From the IMG/VR virus record IMGVR_UViG_3300036770_005357: a stretch of DNA of 64,000 nucleotides; one strand, given 5' to 3'. The position numbers were made by a program, and so were the translations under genes. The notes under the pieces were generated by a model. The model was given only the letters and a program-made list of their open reading frames with translations, had not been told where the DNA came from and made no database searches. Numbering within the stretch: position 1 is the first letter of the stretch; every line of letters starts with the position of its first letter. Source of the DNA: a virus. Its lineage: Duplodnaviria > Caudoviricetes. Positions 34,996-44,517 of this stretch are shown here, piece by piece.

Positions 34996-35077
34996 ATGGC
35001 GCTTCGGGAGGGATTTGAACCCACATTTACATCCAATTATGCACTTAGAGCTTAGAAGACTCCGCCATTACCGAAGC
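34996..35077 (-). tRNA. tRNA-Arg(TCT)-like gene lacking the D-arm
   Basis: GCTTCGG/CCGAAGC acceptor, G73, CCA; only 7 nt between acceptor and anticodon stems; loop CT TCT AA; 22-nt variable region. Confidence 0.65.
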
Positions 35078-35094
35078 ACGATCACTTATTGAAA

Positions 35095-35424
35095 TTACTG
35101 CTTATCCTTCTTTAGTTCATCTTGTACTGACTTACCCAGTTCTGTCAAGCCAAAAAGTGGCTCTCCATTCTTATCATAACCAACAATCTGTACAAGTCCT
35201 TGCTTGACAAGATCATCCACAGTTTCCTTAACCTCCATAAGAGAAGCCTCTTCATAGATTTCATTGGCTTCAGCTTCGTCACAACCAGTTTCCTTCATAA
35301 TGTACTCAATGGCAGATTGTCGTTCACACTGCTTATCCAGCTCATCTACATTAAGATTTGCGCAATGGTTAAGCACTTGATCAATTGTACCGGTAAACAT
35401 ACCACCGTGTTCAGAAAATTCCAT
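35095..35424 (-). CDS. Hypothetical protein (winged-helix-like C-terminus)
   Basis: 109 aa; LVKQGLVQIVG...LTELGK pattern. Confidence 0.65.
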   Translation of the reverse strand: MEFSEHGGMFTGTIDQVLNHCANLNVDELDKQCERQSAIEYIMKETGCDEAEANEIYEEASLMEVKETVDDLVKQGLVQIVGYDKNGEPLFGLTELGKSVQDELKKDKQ

Positions 35425-35443
35425 AGTATTATTTAATTAATAA

Positions 35444-35752
35444 TTAGACACTAAGATTGAAATCGTAGCTAGTTTCATCAGTATGCTGCTTGTAGTACCT
35501 ACGGGCACGATTTGACATGTGATGAAGAACCTTGTTGACATTGTGAGGAACCCTAACATTAGGCCCCCAACCAAACTCAGCACGACCGAAAGCAATGTCA
35601 TAAGCACGATGCTTATCAAACTTATCGCCAGCGGTGGTGTTGGTATAACTCCAACCTAGGCGAATTTGGTTATTGATAACGGTTGCGACGACGAGACCAC
35701 GAGCATTACCCTTACGATCACGAACGAACTGAGACAGACTAGTATCCTTCAT
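35444..35752 (-). CDS. Hypothetical early protein
   Basis: 102 aa, downstream of a sigma70 promoter. Confidence 0.7.
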   Translation of the reverse strand: MKDTSLSQFVRDRKGNARGLVVATVINNQIRLGWSYTNTTAGDKFDKHRAYDIAFGRAEFGWGPNVRVPHNVNKVLHHMSNRARRYYKQHTDETSYDFNLSV

Positions 35753-35800
35753 ATTTAGTTTTTTGTTTTTTGGTTTAGATTGTGTACCGACGATAAAACC

Positions 35801-35828
35801 ACTATACCATACCTTTATAGAAAGTCAA
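35801..35828 (-). promoter_or_regulatory. Sigma70-type promoter
   Basis: TTGACT-N16-TATAGT with TG extension. Confidence 0.7.
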
Positions 35829-35854
35829 GCGGGTATTTTGAAGGAATATAGTTT

Positions 35855-36877
35855 TTATATATTGAATATAGATTTTAGCTTAGATTCTACTGTATAGAAC
35901 CAATCTGTATTATTTGAAGGTGTGGTTGGAATTTTACTTAAAAGTATTTTCGTACTATATGTTGCCAAACCATGTTGTTCGGCATCATTACAATTGGCAT
36001 ATTGTTCGTAGTGATTTGGCAATGGTACCATTAAGACTGGTTTATTATTCAATATAGCTTCAGCGGTTGTTTCAAATCCACCGCTACAAATAACAGCTTT
36101 GCACACTTTCATTTTTTCTTGAAAAAGTTTACCGTCTAATTTATGTAATTTTAAGTTATGTGGACATTCAAAATTTCTTGTTAATCTTGTAAAGCATTCT
36201 AATTTTATATCTGGATATTTTATAGCTTCTTCAATTAAACCGGGTACCAAATCTTGATTCATTAAATATATTAACACAAAATCTTCAGTTTTGTCACTTT
36301 TGTCATAACTGTTTTGTCTAAGCACTGGTGGACAGCAGATAACATTATCATCATTAAATTCATAATAACTCAACGCAACTTTTTTGGCTCGTATAGTTGT
36401 GATACAATTAATTAACTTTACAAAGAATTTTTGTATTGCATAACCATTTATTTTTGGATATACATCAAGTATCATTGCATTTTGGTGGGATATGCTTATA
36501 TAATTGATTTTAGGAAATAATAAAGCAGAAAGCCCGACCAATGGTTCATAAAAGTTAACAATTGTATCTGGATTTTCTTGTTTGATTGTTTTACAAATCT
36601 TAATAAATGCATAAATTAATCGGGGTAATTCTATTACATTTTTTAACATGGTTTTCCATAAAACTACTTTGCCGTGATTATCAAATACAAAATCAAAACC
36701 TTCAAAGGTTACCACATTAAATTCATCGGTAAAAAACTTTGGTAGACCTACTTTCTTTTCTGCTGCTAATATACAGCTTACATCGTGATTGTTTTTATTT
36801 AGAAATTGTTTAGTGGCAATAGCTTGTATTGTATGTCCACTACCTTCTGTACAAACAGCAAATAATATTTTTTTCAT
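35855..36877 (-). CDS. GT-B glycosyltransferase, MJ1255/VC2487-like (GT28/UgtP-related)
   Basis: TEGSGH N-terminal loop; ICSGGFETTAEAILNNKPVLMVP...EQYAN C-terminal motif. Confidence 0.85.
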   Translation of the reverse strand: MKKILFAVCTEGSGHTIQAIATKQFLNKNNHDVSCILAAEKKVGLPKFFTDEFNVVTFEGFDFVFDNHGKVVLWKTMLKNVIELPRLIYAFIKICKTIKQENPDTIVNFYEPLVGLSALLFPKINYISISHQNAMILDVYPKINGYAIQKFFVKLINCITTIRAKKVALSYYEFNDDNVICCPPVLRQNSYDKSDKTEDFVLIYLMNQDLVPGLIEEAIKYPDIKLECFTRLTRNFECPHNLKLHKLDGKLFQEKMKVCKAVICSGGFETTAEAILNNKPVLMVPLPNHYEQYANCNDAEQHGLATYSTKILLSKIPTTPSNNTDWFYTVESKLKSIFNI

Positions 36878-37578
36878 AATTTTATTAATTGTATATCACC
36901 GTCAACAGTTTCAACTACAGCTGTAAGGCTTTCAACGAAATCTCCTGTATTAACATAATGAATATTGTTCATTTGTTTGATTATAGGCGCGTGTATATGT
37001 CCACAAATTACGCCGTCATAATTATTTAATTTACAATATTCCGATAGAGTATCTTCATAATTACCGATGTATTTTACAGCTTCTTTAGCTTTTTGTTTTA
37101 AAAAATTACTGAAGCTAAATTTAAACATTCTGAATAATTTATTTATACCCAAACTAAAATCGTAAATTACAGCTCCAATTCTTTGAATCCACTTATTTTT
37201 GGTTACTATGCCATCAAATTGATCGCCGTGTATAATCAAATATCTTTTATTATTCAGTGTTGTATGTATTGTTTCTCTTGTAATAAGAATATTATCTCCA
37301 AAATGAATATCATTAAATGGTTCCATAAAGTCATCGTGATTACCCCACAAATAGGTAACAACCGTACCTTTACGACTCATTCTTAATATCTTTTGCAATA
37401 TTACATTGTAGTTGTTGTGCCATTTAAATCTTCGTTTGAGTGCCCAACCATCTACAAAATCACCTATTATGTATAAATATTCACATTCAGTTTCACTTAT
37501 TAATTTCAATAACTTTTCATGATTACAAAACTCACTTCCAATGTGTGTATCGCTAATAAAAAGAGTTCTTACTTTCAT
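36874..37578 (-). CDS. plcP: PlcP-like phospholipase C (LpxH-family metallophosphoesterase)
   Basis: RTLFISDTH, GDFVDGW, QKILRMSRKGT, GNHD, HGDQFD, DGVICGHIH and NTGDFVESLTA motifs; likely start MKVRTLF; TGA/ATG overlap with the glycosyltransferase. Confidence 0.75.
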   Translation of the reverse strand: MKVRTLFISDTHIGSEFCNHEKLLKLISETECEYLYIIGDFVDGWALKRRFKWHNNYNVILQKILRMSRKGTVVTYLWGNHDDFMEPFNDIHFGDNILITRETIHTTLNNKRYLIIHGDQFDGIVTKNKWIQRIGAVIYDFSLGINKLFRMFKFSFSNFLKQKAKEAVKYIGNYEDTLSEYCKLNNYDGVICGHIHAPIIKQMNNIHYVNTGDFVESLTAVVETVDGDIQLIKL

Positions 37579-37586
37579 TGACAATA

Positions 37587-37620
37587 AATATAAAAAGGTA
37601 TGGTTACAAAGTCGTGACAA
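37587..37620 (-). promoter_or_regulatory. Pho-box-type promoter
   Basis: TTGTCAC-GACT-TTGTAAC (11-bp period) followed exactly 10 bp later by -10 TATATT. Confidence 0.7.
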
Positions 37621-37725
37621 ATGTTTTTTGTAAAGGAATTGTAAAAGTTAAAATTTATCTATTATAAAAAATTATGTATATTATGTAATCAATTAAGGTT
37701 ACGATTTAAAACGAAAGGATTATAT

Positions 37726-38073
37726 ATGTTAAAGTATCTATTGATATTGTTGACCGCAACAAGTTTGTACGCTCAAGAAGGACCAAAAGGACCACCTCCC
37801 GGTAATCGTCCACCACGTCCAGCTTTGACTGAAGAACAAAAAAAGCAACGAGATGCAATTGTTGCCAAGTACGACACCAACAAAGATGGTAAGTTGGATA
37901 GAGAAGAAAGATCCGGTGTAAGCGAAGAAGATCGCAAGACATTGAGAAGTTTTGGTCCTCCGCCAGGCGGTCCTCGTAGAGGTCCCGGCGGTCCTTACGG
38001 ACCACGTAAAGATGTTCCTCCAGCTAAGAAAGAAGTATCAGCTTGTTGCAGTGTAAAATGTGAATGTTGTTAA
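37726..38073 (+). CDS. Secreted EF-hand protein, Pro/Gly-rich with Cys-rich tail
   Basis: Signal-peptide-like N-terminus; canonical EF loop DTNKDGKLDREE; AGGA Shine-Dalgarno. Confidence 0.8.
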   Translation: MLKYLLILLTATSLYAQEGPKGPPPGNRPPRPALTEEQKKQRDAIVAKYDTNKDGKLDREERSGVSEEDRKTLRSFGPPPGGPRRGPGGPYGPRKDVPPAKKEVSACCSVKCECC

Positions 38074-38091
38074 TTATAATATAAAACAGTG

Positions 38092-38116
38092 AACCCCGCT
38101 TTTGGCGGGGTTTTTT
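38092..38116 (+). terminator. Rho-independent terminator
   Basis: aaccccgc-ttttg-gcggggtt followed by a T-run. Confidence 0.85.
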
Positions 38117-38117
38117 G

Positions 38118-38264
38118 TTAACTTGCTAATGAACCACTTGTACTACTAATACTTACATCGTAAGCTGGTTGACCTAATTGGTTATTTACATAATTAAGAT
38201 CCCAACTAGGTACATTTACCAACTTCTTTTTGCCTTTTTTGTCTTTAGTTATAATTCTTCTCAT
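38118..38264 (-). CDS. Small hypothetical protein (48 aa)
   Basis: MRRIITKDKKGKKK...; TATTTATA motif just upstream. Confidence 0.45.
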   Translation of the reverse strand: MRRIITKDKKGKKKLVNVPSWDLNYVNNQLGQPAYDVSISSTSGSLAS

Positions 38265-38324
38265 ATCATATAAATAGAAAACCCCACCAAATAAGTGATG
38301 GGGTCACATAACAATTTATTTCAT

Positions 38325-38540
38325 TTACTTTTTACAAATAAACGATGTATATACATTTTCTGCGCGTTGCAACGCATCATGTAATGGAATATCACCGATA
38401 TATTCAAGTGATTTACCGCTCTTCTCAGCATTACGTTCAGCAATTTCTTTTTTGGTAAACCACTCGTTTTGAGTGATGTTGATCATTTCTTTTAGAATTT
38501 CCCAACGCAATTCGTAGGGAGTCTTATTATTATCTGCCAT
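38325..38540 (-). CDS. Hypothetical protein
   Basis: Likely start MADNNKTPYELR; followed by a terminator-like hairpin at 38278-38304. Confidence 0.7.
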   Translation of the reverse strand: MADNNKTPYELRWEILKEMINITQNEWFTKKEIAERNAEKSGKSLEYIGDIPLHDALQRAENVYTSFICKK

Positions 38541-38603
38541 ATTTTTCCTTTGTGTTTGTGTGTTATGATAGCCACTATTGACTATCACTTATATATAACA
38601 AAG

Positions 38604-38637
38604 AAAAAACCCACCGAATTATTATATTCAGTGGGTT
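38604..38637 (-). terminator. Rho-independent terminator
   Basis: acccac...gtgggt stem plus T-run on the minus strand. Confidence 0.7.
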
Positions 38638-38653
38638 ATATATCTAATTTTTA

Positions 38654-39334
38654 TTAAGCTTGTTTAGATTCAAAAAATCCTCTTTTAGCGAGAGTTTCTG
38701 CATCTTCCAACATATCTTTCAACATTTCCTTAGCAATTTCGTCTTTTTCGATACTACCGAAAAGTTTCTCGAATTCTTGTCTTTCGTCTGATTTTTTAAT
38801 ATTATCTATATCCGTGCGAATTTCCAAACTTAAAAAATCAATTTTTTCTTCAAAACTCATTTTTTTGTATTTTCGCCAATCAAGCATTCCCATGTTTTTG
38901 ATTGCATATATAACATTATTTTTATATTTATCTACTAATTTTCTCAATCTGACTTTTTTGTTGATTAGTTGTTTTTCTTTTTCCTTTTCCAAGTAATTTC
39001 TCAAGTACGCATTAAAATGATACAAAATGGATGTACCAGGAAATTCACTATATTCATCAAAATCAAATCCACCATAACCACCGTTATGTTGTGAAGTGTT
39101 TAAATAAGTAAGAAAATCGTTTAACTTTTCATTACTCCAACCGGCTTTAGCTGCATATTGTTTTATTGTAAATTTTGGTCGTTTCTCAACTCTTTGTCGT
39201 GTACCGGTTAAACCATCTGGATCCCAATCAGGTCGTTCAGTCTCTGGTTCTTCATAATATTCATTAATATTTAAATGTTCTTTAAGCAGTTTAAGATGCT
39301 TCTTAAATGTGTCGTTTAAAGTGTTTTCGTTCAT
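38654..39334 (-). CDS. Hypothetical protein
   Basis: 226-aa charged ORF. Confidence 0.7.
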   Translation of the reverse strand: MNENTLNDTFKKHLKLLKEHLNINEYYEEPETERPDWDPDGLTGTRQRVEKRPKFTIKQYAAKAGWSNEKLNDFLTYLNTSQHNGGYGGFDFDEYSEFPGTSILYHFNAYLRNYLEKEKEKQLINKKVRLRKLVDKYKNNVIYAIKNMGMLDWRKYKKMSFEEKIDFLSLEIRTDIDNIKKSDERQEFEKLFGSIEKDEIAKEMLKDMLEDAETLAKRGFFESKQA

Positions 39335-39430: not shown

Positions 39431-40219
39431 TTAATTGGGATTTGTAGTTGGATCTTCTGTCCAAATTACTCTCTCTTGAGGAAATATAGCTTTGCCAGGT
39501 TTACCTACACCTTCTCTAGTTTCTACTACTTGATTACCTTTAAAATTCTCAGCGTGTCCATCTGCAAATATTAAATTACCGGTATTGTTATGACGAGCAG
39601 AAAATCTGCTAGCAAAAGCATTTGGTTGACCATTATATTTACTTTGTTTAGCATGAAACATTGCTTCTCCCGGTAATCCACATTCAGTAAATACCACAGT
39701 GGATACCGGTATTTGAATTGCACCAATTCTAGTCAAATTAGTGTCACGATTCAATTTACTGTTCATAGCAAGTGAAAATAATGGATTAGCTTTTCTTACT
39801 TCTACAGCAGGCAACTTTGCTGCGGGACATGTAAACATAGAACCCTTTTCATAAAATGCTAATGGTGTATTAGCAAAATTAGATACGGGTATAGTTCCTA
39901 TAGCTCTAGGAATTGAATTACACCACAATTCTCTATTTTCATCTTGTATAGCTAAACTATAATCTAATATGTCTTGTCCAGATGGTAAATTAAATGGTTT
40001 GTCTAACGGCAAATAATCTTGATTTTCATCAACATAATACATCAAACCAAGACCCCATTGTTTTTCTTGATTTAAACAAGATATTCGTAAAGCGTTGCCT
40101 TTAGCCTTACTAAGTGCCGGTAACAACATACCAGCTAATATAGCAATTATTGCGATTACAACCAACAATTCTATTAAGGTAAACCCTTTCTTCAATCTAT
40201 TTGTAATATTCAACTTCAT
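39431..40219 (-). CDS. Prepilin-type N-terminal cleavage/methylation protein with H-X9-DG domain (DUF1559-like)
   Basis: KKG|[22 protein letters not shown] class III signal; [12 protein letters not shown] motif; AGGA SD. Confidence 0.9.
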
Positions 40220-40316
40220 AGTTATGTCCTTTTGTTAAGAGACAATAACTATTTTTATAATAAATCCGTTTCTCTTCTGTAACTGTGATGTAACAATCGT
40301 TGACAGTTTGTTACAA

Positions 40317-41099
40317 TTATTTATAAAACGGTTCATTTATATCAATTTTACCATCATTTAAATCATTTATTAATTGTGGTATATTTTCTTTTTCAATAAT
40401 TGGCATTTCTTCTTTAAGTAATTCTGTTGCAGATACTTTTACAATTTTATTGTGTTTTGAATTGTTTATCAATATTTGTTTACCGGTTAAACTATTACTA
40501 TTTGCACCCGGTACTTTAGACATCAATAATTTCACTTTTTCAGCACTATAACTCGTTTTACCATAATTTATACCGTTATCATAAGCATTGTTAATTTTTG
40601 ATTCTAAATTAATAAATGATTGTTCTATTGATTCACCTGTAGATGGTTTGCCTTTAGTAATATTCAACTTACCAACAGTATAAGTGTTTAATACTGTTAT
40701 AAGTTTATTTTTTGTTAAATTAATCTTTATATATTTTACTTTCATATTCGGATTAATTGTTATAGCGGCTGCCCACTTATGATGACCATCCATAATTGCA
40801 GGTGGATCATCATTTGAAACTACAGCATCCATATCCTCCAAATTCAACCATGTTTCATTAGCAAGATGTGCCAAAATAAAAGAAAGCACTTTGTCCGAAA
40901 CAAGTGTTTTTTGTGTAGGCGTTAAAAGAATAACATCACCCACGACAATTTCGCTGGTAACAATATCATCTTTTATATCACCATCTTTATGACCCGATTC
41001 AATTTTTACTTTAGCAACATTTGTATCTATATTTGAAAGTGCAATTGGATCTTTGGAAAAAGCAACCGTTATAAATAAAAAAAATAGTAGTATTCTCAT
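40317..41099 (-). CDS. Signal-peptide-bearing ParB/Srx-like domain protein
   Basis: Hydrophobic N-terminus MRILLFFLFITVAFS; IMDGHHKWAA ParB-like motif. Confidence 0.6.
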   Translation of the reverse strand: MRILLFFLFITVAFSKDPIALSNIDTNVAKVKIESGHKDGDIKDDIVTSEIVVGDVILLTPTQKTLVSDKVLSFILAHLANETWLNLEDMDAVVSNDDPPAIMDGHHKWAAAITINPNMKVKYIKINLTKNKLITVLNTYTVGKLNITKGKPSTGESIEQSFINLESKINNAYDNGINYGKTSYSAEKVKLLMSKVPGANSNSLTGKQILINNSKHNKIVKVSATELLKEEMPIIEKENIPQLINDLNDGKIDINEPFYK

Positions 41100-41134: not shown

Positions 41135-41152
41135 GTTACAGATCTGTAACAA
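41135..41152 (-). promoter_or_regulatory. Pho-box-like direct repeat (also a 16-bp palindrome)
   Basis: TTGTTAC-AGAT-CTGTAAC, 35 nt upstream of the 41099 ATG. Confidence 0.45.
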
Positions 41153-42067: not shown

Positions 42068-42607
42068 TTAAAGTTTATCGTAATAGTTGCGGTAATTAGA
42101 CATAATAATTCCGCTAGTAGTACCTACATTAAGAGATCTTACACTACCATATGCCTGAATTGTAATAATCAAATCACTATTGTCAAGCATAAAACCACTT
42201 AATCCATCTTTTTCCTCGCCAAAAATAAACATTGGCTTGTCAATACCATAAAATAGATCTTCCTCATACAAATCATAAGTCTTATGTTCATATTCAGGTA
42301 TATTGTTTTCTACCGCAATCAAATTGTAATTTTCATTCTTGACATAATCTACAAATGATTCTTCATCAGTAAAATGACTTATATCCGTATAGTGATATGT
42401 ACCTACACTTCCTCGTCTATCCCACTTCTTCTTGCCAACATAACAAGCTTGCTTGTAACCAAAAAAGTTGGCATTACGAATCAAAGTGCTGAGATTAAAA
42501 TCTCCAGACACATGCATCATTGCAACACCAGCATCAATCGCTGAATCTTTACAATAATTCTTAATTTCAAGAACCGTATGGGTCTTGAGATGATCCAAAA
42601 CATTCAT
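42068..42607 (-). CDS. SpoU/TrmH-family (SPOUT) RNA 2'-O-methyltransferase
   Basis: NLSTLIRNA (motif 1), FIFGEEKDGL (motif 2), VRSLNVGTT (motif 3). Confidence 0.9.
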   Translation of the reverse strand: MNVLDHLKTHTVLEIKNYCKDSAIDAGVAMMHVSGDFNLSTLIRNANFFGYKQACYVGKKKWDRRGSVGTYHYTDISHFTDEESFVDYVKNENYNLIAVENNIPEYEHKTYDLYEEDLFYGIDKPMFIFGEEKDGLSGFMLDNSDLIITIQAYGSVRSLNVGTTSGIIMSNYRNYYDKL

Positions 42608-43542: not shown

Positions 43543-44517
43543 TTATCTTCCCGGTGGTAAACTATTTTCCTTCACTTCAAATATACCATTACCAACGAAA
43601 TCTGTCAAGGATTTATATCCACTATAACTTACAGCTGATGATAGTCCACCCCACAAATCATCAACCAATTCTTGTAGAGACTTAACACTATTACGATCTA
43701 CTTCATACACTTTACCTTCACTATGTCGTCTCACACCACCATACAGTTGTTGTTGTTTGGTACTTGCTCCACCCCAATATGTACCATCGCCGGTTTCCCA
43801 TGTATAGGCTTCTTTAGCTCTAGCAAAGTAACCACCCATCATAACATAATCAGCACCAGCACCAAATGCTTTAGCAGCATAGTTACCGTTCTTTATACCA
43901 CCATCCGCAATTACTTTTAAGTTGTCAATATCAGCTTGATCACTACATTCTATAATTTCTGTAATTTGTCCTCTGTTATAACCAGTAGCATCACTTGTAG
44001 CACAAGCACTACCACCAGCAATACCAACTCTAATCAATACTTCGGGTATATATTTACTAAAATAACTGTATAAATTTATACCATCTGCGGTCATTACATT
44101 GCCGACCATTAAACGATTAACTTTATGTTTATTACATAGCTTATTAATTACATCACGAATTTGTGGTAAATAACCATTGGCACAATCAATCAACCAATTA
44201 TCAACACCTTCACTTGCCAACTCTTTAGCTCTGTCCCAATCATTAAGTCCAATGCTTACAAATAAGTTTTCTTTATTTGGTACAATGGAATAATTAATTA
44301 CAGCATTATCAATATCACAAAACTTATGTTGACATACAGTTAACCCTAGTTTTGTAGCTTCTTTAGCAAATGTTTGTCCTACAACTGCTGCCATAGGACT
44401 AACAATTATGCGATTCAGTTCAAGCGGCACATCCTTACGACTACCGATTTCAGCTGGTTGTGCTATAAGATTTACATCGTTATAGTAAATTGACTTGGTT
44501 TTCTTAAAAACTGCCAT
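43543..44517 (-). CDS. guaC: GMP reductase (IMPDH/GMPR family)
   Basis: IDCANGY, VGIAGGSAC catalytic loop, IADGGI, GADYVMMGG and SEGK motifs; no CBS domain. Confidence 0.8.
   Translation of the reverse strand: MAVFKKTKSIYYNDVNLIAQPAEIGSRKDVPLELNRIIVSPMAAVVGQTFAKEATKLGLTVCQHKFCDIDNAVINYSIVPNKENLFVSIGLNDWDRAKELASEGVDNWLIDCANGYLPQIRDVINKLCNKHKVNRLMVGNVMTADGINLYSYFSKYIPEVLIRVGIAGGSACATSDATGYNRGQITEIIECSDQADIDNLKVIADGGIKNGNYAAKAFGAGADYVMMGGYFARAKEAYTWETGDGTYWGGASTKQQQLYGGVRRHSEGKVYEVDRNSVKSLQELVDDLWGGLSSAVSYSGYKSLTDFVGNGIFEVKENSLPPGR

Follow-up and report, generated by a model that had tools for sequence, protein, structure and literature searches.

A large phage from freshwater carries a bacterial-type two-gene operon, a plcP-family esterase gene followed by a glycosyltransferase gene, behind a phosphate-starvation-type operator, and therefore probably swaps the phospholipids of its host for sugar lipids. 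We propose that this cassette is a phage copy of the plcP-glycosyltransferase lipid-renovation operon, by which membrane phosphorus would be mined and the membrane refilled with glycolipid, with control probably exerted via the PhoB protein of the host; we put the probability of this reading at slightly above one half (about 0.55). The DNA comes from a 173-kb IMG/VR virus record, about 73% complete, of which one stretch of 64,000 nucleotides (hereafter the window) was analysed. That the record is one of a virus agrees with the phage origin assumed in a first-pass annotation of the window.

Layout of the phage locus

The features discussed below are collected in Table 1. The esterase is read from the ATG at 37578 on the minus strand (ORF 37578..36874), the TTG start at 37620 in the program's list of open reading frames being spurious. 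The gene ends in a TGA that overlaps the glycosyltransferase start codon (gene at 36877..35855) in the sequence ATGA, confirming the translational coupling claimed earlier, and all the sequence statements of the first-pass annotation (box, spacing, TATATT, ORF overlap) hold on re-reading. The host probably belongs to the Verrucomicrobia/PVC group, though it may be one of the Bacteroidota. A distant blastn search of a phage collection with positions 35000-39000 returned a single 62-nt match, to two unannotated jumbo-phage records, and no annotated relative. No pstS/PstS-type gene, PhoH, OmpR-type DNA-binding domain (Trans_reg_C) or FA_hydroxylase was found in the 173-kb record, at its completeness of about 73%.

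Table 1. Genes and upstream elements of the plcP-glycosyltransferase region (positions in the window).
Feature	Coordinates	Strand	Basis
GT-B glycosyltransferase P0002, MJ1255/VC2487 family (PF13528), 340 aa	35855..36877	-	profiles, model, neighbourhoods, trees
PlcP-family metallophosphoesterase P0001, predicted phospholipase C, 234 aa	36874..37578	-	profiles, alignment, tree, model
TATATTTAT = TATATT (37592..37587) + TATTTAT (37590..37584), 5 nt before ATG	37584..37592	-	
7-4-7 direct repeat TTGTCAC-GACT-TTGTAAC = TTGTCACGACTTTGTAAC, 18 bp, Pho-box-like operator	37603..37620	-	
Second 7-4-7 repeat TTGTAAA-GGAA-TTGTAAA, back to back with the plcP box, facing the EF-hand gene	37628..37645	+	
115-aa protein, signal peptide and weak EF-hand match, divergent from plcP	37726..38073	+	
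Prepilin-type protein, 262 aa, N_methyl signal and H-X9-DG motif	39431..40219	-	
Array of four half-sites resembling TGT(A/C/T)AC, phased at 10-11 bp, 5' of the prepilin-like gene	40278..40316	-	
260-aa protein, signal peptide and DGHHKW motif; ParB-like nuclease leads weak only	40317..41099	-	
7-4-7 repeat TTGTTAC-AGAT-CTGTAAC, 35 nt before the ATG at 41099	41135..41152	-	

Assignment of the esterase

P0001 matches the Pfam Metallophos profile at 49.5 bits and its metal motifs (DxH, GD, GNHD, HGD and GHxH) are intact, with D10, H12, D40, N80-H81-D82, H117, H194 and H196 invariant in the alignment. It falls below the cut-offs of the curated LpxH models (32.5 vs. 190.35 bits for TIGR01854 and 42 vs. 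134 bits for NF003743). Five betaproteobacterial genomes each contain a true LpxH (185-262 bits on the LpxH model) and a second paralogue (34-51 bits); P0001 matches only the non-LpxH paralogue (E-values of 1e-61 to 1e-65), the LpxH proteins of the same genomes giving 4e-4 or worse. Its identity to cellular non-LpxH paralogues of the PlcP family is 40-45%, vs. 17-24% to LpxH. In a tree built without an experimentally characterised PlcP sequence, for which the plcP-GT4 locus of Burkholderia latens served as proxy, a branch of about 10 changes per site (support 100/100) sets LpxH apart, and the phage clade lies within the other group. The curated thresholds, the paralogue comparison and the tree speak against a true LpxH. 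Judged by profile scores and phylogeny, the enzyme belongs to the PlcP branch of the LpxH-like family, as the first reading of the sequence had supposed.

In the non-LpxH group, a GT4/agt gene lies downstream in 22 of 80 loci, including that of Burkholderia latens, and btaA, an MGDG synthase or a patatin gene is found elsewhere. No family was found for the ORF tried as a dagK after the Burkholderia latens GT4 gene. The plcP-agt operon of the Burkholderia cepacia complex has been characterised (PMC13691135).

The predicted structure of P0001 shows an LpxH-like fold with a helical cap, the cap being modelled at low confidence, and its 25 best matches among solved structures are all LpxH. In the alignment, phage PlcPs are about 7 cap residues shorter than the cellular ones, which counts against the phospholipase reading. 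A PHROGs search led to generic phosphoesterase families only for the esterase, and to nothing for the glycosyltransferase.

The glycosyltransferase partner

P0002 matches PF13528 over residues 3-303 (85.8 bits, cut-off 25) and TIGR00661 over its full length (129.6 bits, under the cut-off of 195.9). The model has a GT-B fold (pLDDT 89.5); among reviewed entries, MJ1255 and MM_0582 come nearest. MurG, which uses a lipid-linked acceptor, is the nearest named family, and the nearest solved folds are those of MurG and of natural-product glycosyltransferases. The label of GT28/UgtP-like enzyme given at first has to be replaced by that of the MJ1255/VC2487 family (PF13528): P0002 has no PF06925 (MGDG_synth) domain and only a weak match to PF04101 (27 bits, residues 253-307), and is not of the UgtP or MGDG synthase type. 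The accompanying suggestion of a family other than the usual Agt was correct, P0002 having no GT4 match (PF13439/PF00534) where the cellular Agt-type neighbours have both domains.

The PF13528/MJ1255 family has no characterised member and no known acceptor, and we found no paper characterising this glycosyltransferase. Because of this, it is gene context that points to diacylglycerol as the predicted acceptor. In Flavobacterium johnsoniae, a Pi-induced pf04101 glycosyltransferase is counted among the entries for lipid remodelling (PMC8115612). In Dokdonia under phosphorus starvation, aminolipids rather than glycolipids are reported to go up (PMC4796936), which counts against a glycolipid product.

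Pairing of the two genes in phages and bacteria

Trees and gene neighbourhoods indicate that the two genes travel together. The ATGA coupling occurs in all 12 phage loci found, which are monophyletic for both genes, and both trees, that of PlcP and that of the glycosyltransferase, recover the phage sequences as one clade whose sister group consists of cellular pairs from Bacteroidota and Verrucomicrobia. The best cellular relatives of P0002 are glycosyltransferases encoded immediately 3' of plcP. The pairing is not unusual: a PF13528-type glycosyltransferase gene lies directly downstream of plcP in 78 of the 109 sampled Bacteroidota PlcP loci, where it is the commonest plcP arrangement, and also in some Verrucomicrobia. 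The glycosyltransferase family is rare in the Verrucomicrobiota sample (2-3 of 251 genomes), and because two extra matches to it do not adjoin PlcP, adjacency in this phylum is drawn from two loci found via PlcP. A word-indexed protein search with the glycosyltransferase returned phage-clade relatives only; three contexts were examined from an exhaustive search, one of them another esterase-glycosyltransferase pair and two on contigs that were too short.

One could imagine that membrane glycerolipids are not the substrate of the pair, the esterase instead hydrolysing a nucleotide-linked or lipid A precursor in LpxH-like fashion and the glycosyltransferase being part of a phage glycan machinery that decorates virions, DNA or LPS. 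This would fit the LpxH fold of the esterase, a glycosyltransferase family that is uncharacterised and whose nearest solved folds are MurG and natural-product enzymes, and the practice in viromics papers of filing such genes as lpxH, LPS biosynthesis (PMC10653327, PMC9611531). We nevertheless consider it very improbable, given that the esterase fails the LpxH thresholds and is distant from LpxH in the tree, and that the glycosyltransferase is without exception inherited together with PlcP in phages and, in Bacteroidota, is usually encoded next to plcP. Moreover, at least 27 kb separate the cassette from the glycan clusters, and its two genes move as one unit from one phage context to another.

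The upstream repeat and the start-proximal motif

The repeat upstream of the esterase gene has the architecture of a Pho box: two direct repeats of 7 bp, 4 bp apart (11-bp period), one turn upstream of a -10-like element and in the position of a -35. Downstream of the box (37620..37603) the sequence runs through CATACCTTTT (10 nt), TATATT (37592..37587) and TATTGTCA to the ATG at 37578, with 8 nt between TATATT and the ATG, so that the arrangement of box, TATATT and metallophosphoesterase gene is as originally described. The geometry of a PhoB-activated promoter that had been seen in it stands in part: the repeat and its spacing are present, but the supposed -10 is a general start-proximal motif of the phage. 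TATATT is not a free-standing -10; it belongs to a phage-wide motif, TATTTAT-N5-ATG, which precedes many ORFs, including large structural ones (859-2768 aa). The promoter is thus not of the plain PhoB/sigma-70 type, and the TATTTAT motif points to a promoter of phage type whose transcript would have a very short leader or none at all. A generic sigma-70 scan was uninformative, its matches in this AT-rich region being at the level of shuffled sequence.

Conservation of the repeat in phages and bacteria

The 7-4-7 repeat keeps both its register and its distance from the start codon in 6 of the 12 phage cassettes (the present one and five diverged). Among these boxed cassettes, whose proteins are 67-92% identical, invariance upstream is confined to the columns GTnnC-N6-GTnAC and TAnTTAT; the former stands at a fixed 11-12 nt from the TATTTAT motif, and the flanks are randomised. 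The best-conserved half-site across the phage cassettes is GTAAC, not TGTCA. The box is absent from the other 6 cassettes, which form part of operons that also contain DHFR, methyltransferase or other genes. With half of the cassettes unboxed and located inside nucleotide-metabolism operons, phosphate control does not extend to all of them. In related cassettes the neighbouring genes include those for DHFR, thymidylate synthase, dCMP deaminase and IMPDH-like proteins, which we count as a link to nucleotide supply.

Boxes of the same form precede pstS operons in candidate host phyla, in a comparison made at the level of phylum or group (one verrucomicrobial and five Bacteroidota genomes). The sequence TTGTCAC-ACAA-TCGTAAC before a verrucomicrobial porin-pstS operon shares 13 of 14 half-site positions with the phage box, and the same genome also has plcP and the glycosyltransferase gene; 7-4-7 TAAC boxes lie before the pstS operons of the five Bacteroidota genomes. 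A CTGTCAC-GGCA-TGGTCAC box is present upstream of Burkholderia plcP. In the regions upstream of 20 cellular plcP-glycosyltransferase operons, TAAY sites recur at distances of 11 and 22 bp more often than expected (0 of 300 shuffles); the excess is seen with TAA[CT], and with strict TAAC at 22 bp, but not with strict half-sites at 11 bp. A TGT-based Pho-box scan of cellular PlcP loci gave few matches, the boxes of these phyla having a TAAC core. These comparisons support the view that the phage box behaves like a conserved OmpR/PhoB-type operator and resembles the boxes of pstS operons. The Pho-box-like nature first attributed to the repeat is upheld both by this likeness and by its conservation across phage cassettes.

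The cassette might also be expressed by the phage programme from the TATTTAT promoter, in every infection and whatever the phosphate supply, the repeat being a relic of the cellular operon or of minor importance. TATTTAT-N5-ATG is common to many unboxed phage genes, and as the -10-like element is shared with structural genes, expression may indeed follow the phage programme; the 6 of 12 related cassettes found unboxed, in operons with DHFR, methyltransferase or other genes, point the same way. A relic, however, would not keep GTnnC-N6-GTnAC invariant at one distance amid randomised flanks, and three further boxes occur in the window. We regard a cassette driven by the phage programme as quite unlikely.

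A cluster of boxed promoters

A single box is not significant by itself: TGTCAY-N5-TGTNAY is expected 0.26 times per window and occurs at least once in 23 of 100 shuffles. TGTNAC-N5-TGTNAC, on the other hand, is found 3 times in the window vs. 0.22 expected, a number reached in 0 of 100 shuffles. All three sites fall between 37.6 and 41.2 kb, and the rest of the 173-kb record contains no other. We consider the plcP box to be beyond chance because it is conserved in other phage cassettes, is clustered with others in the window and has the same form as the pstS boxes. The island comprises four boxed promoters within 3.6 kb, and the three besides that of plcP precede envelope or secreted-protein genes. 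None of these genes (pseudopilin-like, secreted protein, EF-hand) is an evident phosphate gene, which counts against the Pho reading. Prepilin-type proteins such as that encoded at 39431..40219 are typical of Planctomycetota, Verrucomicrobiota and Lentisphaerota, and can be used as a host marker.

The enzymes could be as described here and the repeats be operators of another OmpR-family regulator (e.g. an envelope-stress regulator, with CpxR-like GTAAA/GTAAC sites) or of a phage protein. In that case the four boxed units would together make up an island for envelope remodelling, serving for example superinfection block or lysis preparation, and not phosphorus scavenging. The four boxes in 3.6 kb, all before envelope or secreted functions, are compatible with such an island, as are GTAAC as the best-kept half-site (not TGTCA) and the lack of phosphate-uptake genes in the record (about 73% complete). 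Lipid remodelling is also reported to alter phage adsorption in Ruegeria and Pseudomonas (PMC9938194, PMC9804370). Against this, the same half-sites stand, again as 7-4-7 repeats, in front of pstS operons in genomes of Verrucomicrobia and Bacteroidota, plcP has belonged to the core of the Pho regulon in every case tested (PMC4796936, PMC13691135, PMC8115612), and the phage record encodes no DNA-binding response regulator. We hold control by a regulator other than PhoB to be unlikely.

Discussion

Under the reading that we prefer, a phage-borne lipid-renovation operon, the esterase, a Mn-type enzyme of the PlcP branch and putative phospholipase C, would cut the phospho-head group off host glycerophospholipids, and diacylglycerol would stay in the membrane. 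The coupled GT-B enzyme would move a sugar, of whichever kind, from a nucleotide sugar onto that diacylglycerol. The bilayer would be refilled with phosphorus-free glycolipid, and the phage would benefit from the freed phosphate esters, which would feed its large DNA synthesis. In the present phage and its nearest relatives the cassette appears to have a start signal of its own, made of TATTTAT plus the direct repeat at one fixed helical distance. The repeat is most likely bound by the PhoB-type response regulator of the host; given such binding, the genes would be turned up in a phosphate-starved host.

A broader version of this scheme can be put forward tentatively, as possible rather than probable. 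The four Pho-type operators in 3.6 kb would define a small regulon driven by host PhoB, through which the phage under phosphorus starvation would mine phospholipid phosphorus, refill the membrane with a PF13528-made glycolipid and alter the envelope (pseudopilin-like, EF-hand and secreted proteins). Viral "lpxH" genes would really encode phospholipases, and the glycolipid synthase so far missing in Bacteroidota and Verrucomicrobia would be the PF13528 partner of PlcP.

The cassette resembles the bacterial PlcP-Agt pathway (S. meliloti SMc00171; Phaeobacter MED193; SAR11 HTCC7211 PB7211_983/960; B. cenocepacia BCAL2364-2366; Methylosinus OB3b) in that the PlcP-family esterase comes first, a lipid synthase follows directly downstream (diacylglycerol-using there, with a predicted acceptor here) and a Pho-box-type repeat lies upstream. 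It differs in being phage-encoded, in having a PF13528/MJ1255 GT-B partner instead of a GT4 Agt, in its shorter PlcP (234 aa, with a trimmed cap) and in a promoter that joins the repeat to a phage-specific motif. With the plcP-GT(PF13528) operon of Bacteroidota and Verrucomicrobia it shares families, order and strand, the cellular operon having TAAC-type repeats of 11-bp periodicity upstream, but identity is only 35-44% for PlcP and 28-35% for the glycosyltransferase. LpxH, the UDP-2,3-diacylglucosamine diphosphatase of the lipid A pathway, also has a metallophosphoesterase core and a helical lipid-binding cap; at 17-24% identity, however, it is a separate paralogue in genomes holding both.

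The bacterial pathway and Pho-regulated phage genes are both already known, and our literature search yielded no paper joining plcP with "auxiliary metabolic". Zeng and Chisholm reportedly described, in 2012, cyanophage pstS and phoA genes that have Pho boxes and are Pho-regulated. As in that case, a phage gene would be placed under the phosphate-starvation regulator of the host and serve replication when phosphorus is scarce. Unlike pstS and phoA, which act in external phosphate uptake or release, the cassette would mine the host's own membrane and rebuild that membrane. Membrane phospholipids are among the larger phosphorus stores of a bacterial cell.

PlcP relatives occur on viral contigs at least 550 times in IMG/VR, and the viral category "lpxH, LPS biosynthesis" (PMC10653327, PMC9611531) may be misassigned. 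As the standard PlcP partner in Bacteroidota (78/109), the PF13528/MJ1255 glycosyltransferase offers a directly testable function for a widespread uncharacterised family. The fusion of an operator to a phage-specific promoter motif may provide a compact model for wiring a host stress regulator into phage transcription. If our reading is true, the cassette would represent a new kind of auxiliary metabolism, in which membrane phosphorus is turned into nucleotide phosphorus with the membrane kept intact, and would bear on the replication of large phages in phosphorus-poor lakes.

The plcP-like gene and its coupled glycosyltransferase gene

The window comes from an IMG/VR virus record that is 173 kb long, with an estimated completeness of about 73%; its G+C content is about 33% and it contains very large ORFs. 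The metallophosphoesterase gene (P0001) and the glycosyltransferase (GT) gene that follows it (P0002) overlap at an ATGA, where the stop codon of the first meets the start codon of the second. The box, the TATATT, the ATG and this coupling had been described in the first-pass annotation, correctly in every detail. A start of P0001 at TTG 37620, proposed by the ORF finder, was rejected: it extends the protein through the promoter, and all homologues start MKVR at the ATG. A few kb upstream of the island of boxed genes lie genes for an IMPDH/GMP-reductase-like protein and for a SpoU-type RNA methyltransferase; IMPDH-like genes adjoin the plcP-GT cassette in two other fetched loci (L005 and L188) too.

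Features of the plcP-GT locus and related elements in the window
Feature	Position	Strand	Remarks
TTGTCAC-GACT-TTGTAAC box	37620..37603	-	upstream of plcP
CATACCTTTT		-	between box and TATATT
TATATT	37592..37587	-	
TATTGTCA		-	between TATATT and ATG
P0001 ORF	37578..36874	-	234 aa
P0002 ORF	36877..35855	-	340 aa
Extra repeat	37628-37645	+	precedes gene
Extra repeat, four half-sites	40316..40278	-	precedes gene
Extra repeat	41152..41135	-	precedes gene
TATTTAT motif, examples	37584-37590, 15708, 10885, 6868, 25025	-	
Prepilin-type protein	39431-40219	-	N-terminal methylation signal, H-X9-DG motif (DUF1559-like); behind four phased half-sites
260-aa protein	40317-41099	-	signal peptide, DGHHKW motif; behind 7-4-7 box
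SpoU-type RNA methyltransferase	42068-42607	-	
IMPDH/GMP-reductase-like	43543-44517	-	

Placement of P0001 relative to PlcP and LpxH

P0001 is a calcineurin-type metallophosphoesterase with every catalytic motif intact, and its best named relatives carry an LpxH annotation. It scored 32.5 and 42 bits on the curated NCBI models of LpxH, compared to cut-offs of 190 and 134. We retrieved 80 cellular relatives (38-45% identity) together with the flanking DNA. Five betaproteobacterial genomes among these loci have two paralogues each. One scores 185-262 bits on the LpxH model and is a true LpxH; the other scores 34-51 bits and is the sole paralogue to match P0001 (E 1e-61 to 1e-65). A maximum-likelihood tree set LpxH apart from all other proteins on a branch about ten changes per site long (support 100/100), and the phage P0001-type proteins formed their own clade within the non-LpxH group.

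In the non-LpxH group, the gene directly downstream encodes an Agt-type GT4 at 22 loci (Burkholderia latens among them) and a patatin at three; two loci have BtaA (DUF3419) in this place and another two an MGDG-synthase-type GT28. These arrangements match those published for plcP (PMC4796936, PMC9239053), and a plcP-agt-dagK operon has been characterised in the Burkholderia cepacia complex (PMC13691135). It is this synteny that identifies the non-LpxH group as PlcP. The earlier proposal that the esterase is PlcP rather than LpxH is thus borne out by the missed LpxH cut-offs, the 100/100 split and the PlcP-type synteny, and the phylogenetic and HMM comparison suggested as its check places P0001 outside LpxH on both counts. 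We put the probability that P0001 belongs to the PlcP family at about 0.9; family membership would make it a phospholipase C. The predicted structure (pLDDT 82.7) is built like LpxH, a helical cap interrupting the esterase core, and its 25 best solved-structure matches are all LpxH. Confidence of the model is low in the cap, where P0001 has about seven residues fewer than cellular PlcPs.

The glycosyltransferase and its cellular relatives

P0002 matches PF13528 (Glyco_trans_1_3) over its whole length and the MJ1255/VC2487 subfamily model below that model's cut-off. The domain search also gave a weak GT28 C-terminal match, and neither an MGDG_synth domain nor GT4 domains. The structural model is confident (pLDDT 89.5) and shows a GT-B fold. 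Among reviewed proteins, the uncharacterised archaeal GTs MJ1255 and MM_0582 come nearest, followed by MurG. Neither a solved structure nor a known acceptor was found for any member of the family, and the 'GT28/UgtP-like' label given to P0002 at first is therefore only loosely right: the GT28 match is weak, and the MGDG_synth domain is absent. That its family differs from the usual Agt agrees with the lack of GT4 domains. Gene context moderately favours P0002 as the DAG-using partner of PlcP. A Flavobacterium johnsoniae GT with a pf04101 match, which lies in the phoBR operon, is strongly induced by low phosphate and is listed under lipid remodelling (PMC8115612), may be a related case.

Relatives of P0002 occur in 3 of the 80 cellular PlcP loci (two Verrucomicrobia, one Rhodothermia), always directly downstream of plcP; other verrucomicrobial relatives, away from plcP, are more distant. 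Among the closest non-phage relatives from an exhaustive search, one likewise comes after a 271-aa metallophosphoesterase. PlcP homologues were present in 109 of 301 sampled Bacteroidota genomes, and coordinate comparison placed a PF13528-type gene immediately downstream of plcP, on the same strand, in 78 of these 109. The plcP operon of this phylum therefore normally takes the paired form, which we did not find stated in the literature searched; plcP with a PF13528/MJ1255 GT (G260-G559; L197-L236) looks like a standard, undescribed lipid-remodelling operon of Bacteroidota. In the two verrucomicrobial loci (L027:5895-6915 and L087:5931-6870), the PlcP frame stays open 150-200 nt beyond the start of GT homology, which lies in a different frame; a long overlap, an extended C terminus or a misassembly could each account for this.

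Distribution of the cassette in phages

The pair, always coupled, was found on at least 11 further distinct phage contigs, from lakes as well as other waters, and near-identical cassette DNA in metagenomes of at least 11 other studies. The surroundings of the cassette vary between contigs, several copies lying amid dCMP deaminase, DHFR, thymidylate synthase and IMPDH-like genes. The PlcP and GT trees each place the phage proteins in a single clade (100/99) and agree on its basal member; in both, the sister group consists of cellular plcP-adjacent pairs. The two genes were therefore captured together, as one operon, and then co-inherited. In close relatives of this phage, a fatty-acid hydroxylase family gene (PF04116; L006:4301-4831, L002:551-1075) lies directly upstream of or near the cassette, possibly as another auxiliary gene for lipid modification; a search of the record that holds the window did not find it.

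More distant PlcP genes number at least 550 on IMG/VR viral contigs, most without a PF13528 GT, and several lie directly behind TATAAATA, of the T4 late-promoter type. Viromics papers place such genes as lpxH in LPS biosynthesis (PMC10653327, PMC9611531), which is probably a misassignment.

A conserved Pho-box-like repeat on a phage-type promoter

A single box in 64 kb could be due to chance. A 7-4-7 repeat is found 11-12 nt before TATTTAT in 6 of the 12 phage cassettes compared, whose encoded proteins are 67-92% identical; upstream of these six, only GTnnC-N6-GTnAC and TAnTTAT are invariant, and the sequence beyond the repeat is unalignable. The six boxless cassettes lie inside operons, without intergenic space. 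The box and the three extra repeats cluster within 3.6 kb of the window, and TGTNAC-N5-TGTNAC does not occur elsewhere in the 173-kb record.

Similar sites precede cellular pstS genes. A Limisphaerales genome with plcP and the GT has TTGTCAC-ACAA-TCGTAAC, which shares 13 of the 14 half-site positions with the plcP box of the window, before its porin-pstS operon, and a second box three helical turns downstream. Another verrucomicrobial pstS has TTGTTAC-ATCT-ACTTCAC-GTTT-GCGTCAC, a Rhodothermia genome five phased TAAC-type half-sites before its pstS operon, and four other Bacteroidota genomes 7-4-7 boxes (e.g. TGGTAAC-ATTT-GCTTAAC); the Burkholderia plcP box is CTGTCAC-GGCA-TGGTCAC. Upstream of 20 cellular plcP-GT operons, TAA[CT] pairs are spaced at 11 bp in eight cases and at 22 bp in nine (0.8 expected; reached in none of 300 shuffles), counts that are not fully independent because some of the genomes are related. 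Conservation, clustering, likeness to pstS boxes and the sites of cellular plcP-GT operons thus mark the repeat as a conserved OmpR/PhoB-type operator, for which PhoB is the best candidate.

The first-pass annotation had also recognised a PhoB-type promoter geometry. The conserved Pho-box-like repeat holds; a free-standing -10 does not, the TATATT being part of TATTTAT followed by 5 nt and the ATG. TATTTAT(A), about 5 nt and ATG precede many phage ORFs with the same spacing, including giant structural ones (859-2768 aa), and the motif also precedes PlcP genes on related phage contigs (L124, L136, L143, L166). This recurrence suggests that TATTTAT is a phage-specific promoter yielding leaderless or near-leaderless mRNAs. 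The plcP promoter is therefore a phage-type element with an operator added, apparently with almost no leader.

The three further boxed genes encode the prepilin-type protein, the secreted 260-aa protein, which matched no family and had only weak links, at the level of features, to ParB-like nuclease families, and an EF-hand protein that carries a signal peptide. No obvious phosphate gene is among them, and neither pstS, phoH nor an OmpR-type DNA-binding domain was found in the record (about 73% complete). We therefore retain, against the likeness to pstS boxes, a rival explanation in which a different, envelope-related regulator uses the boxes, and we give PhoB control of the cassette even odds.

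Host and proposed function

The prepilin/H-X9-DG protein belongs to a family that typifies Planctomycetota, Verrucomicrobiota and Lentisphaerota, and it is likely a host marker. The box has its closest match in a verrucomicrobial genome, and the nearest clusters of the GT by protein features are from Bacteroidota. Our best guess for the host is a PVC member.

The bacterial PlcP pathway and Pho-regulated phage genes are already known; no description of a phage-encoded PlcP pathway was found in the literature searched. The locus is a phage-borne plcP-GT operon of the Bacteroidota/Verrucomicrobia type in which a conserved Pho-box-like operator has been joined to a phage promoter. Most likely, it would convert host phospholipids into glycolipids and release phosphorus for phage replication, an effect that would be stronger under phosphate starvation.
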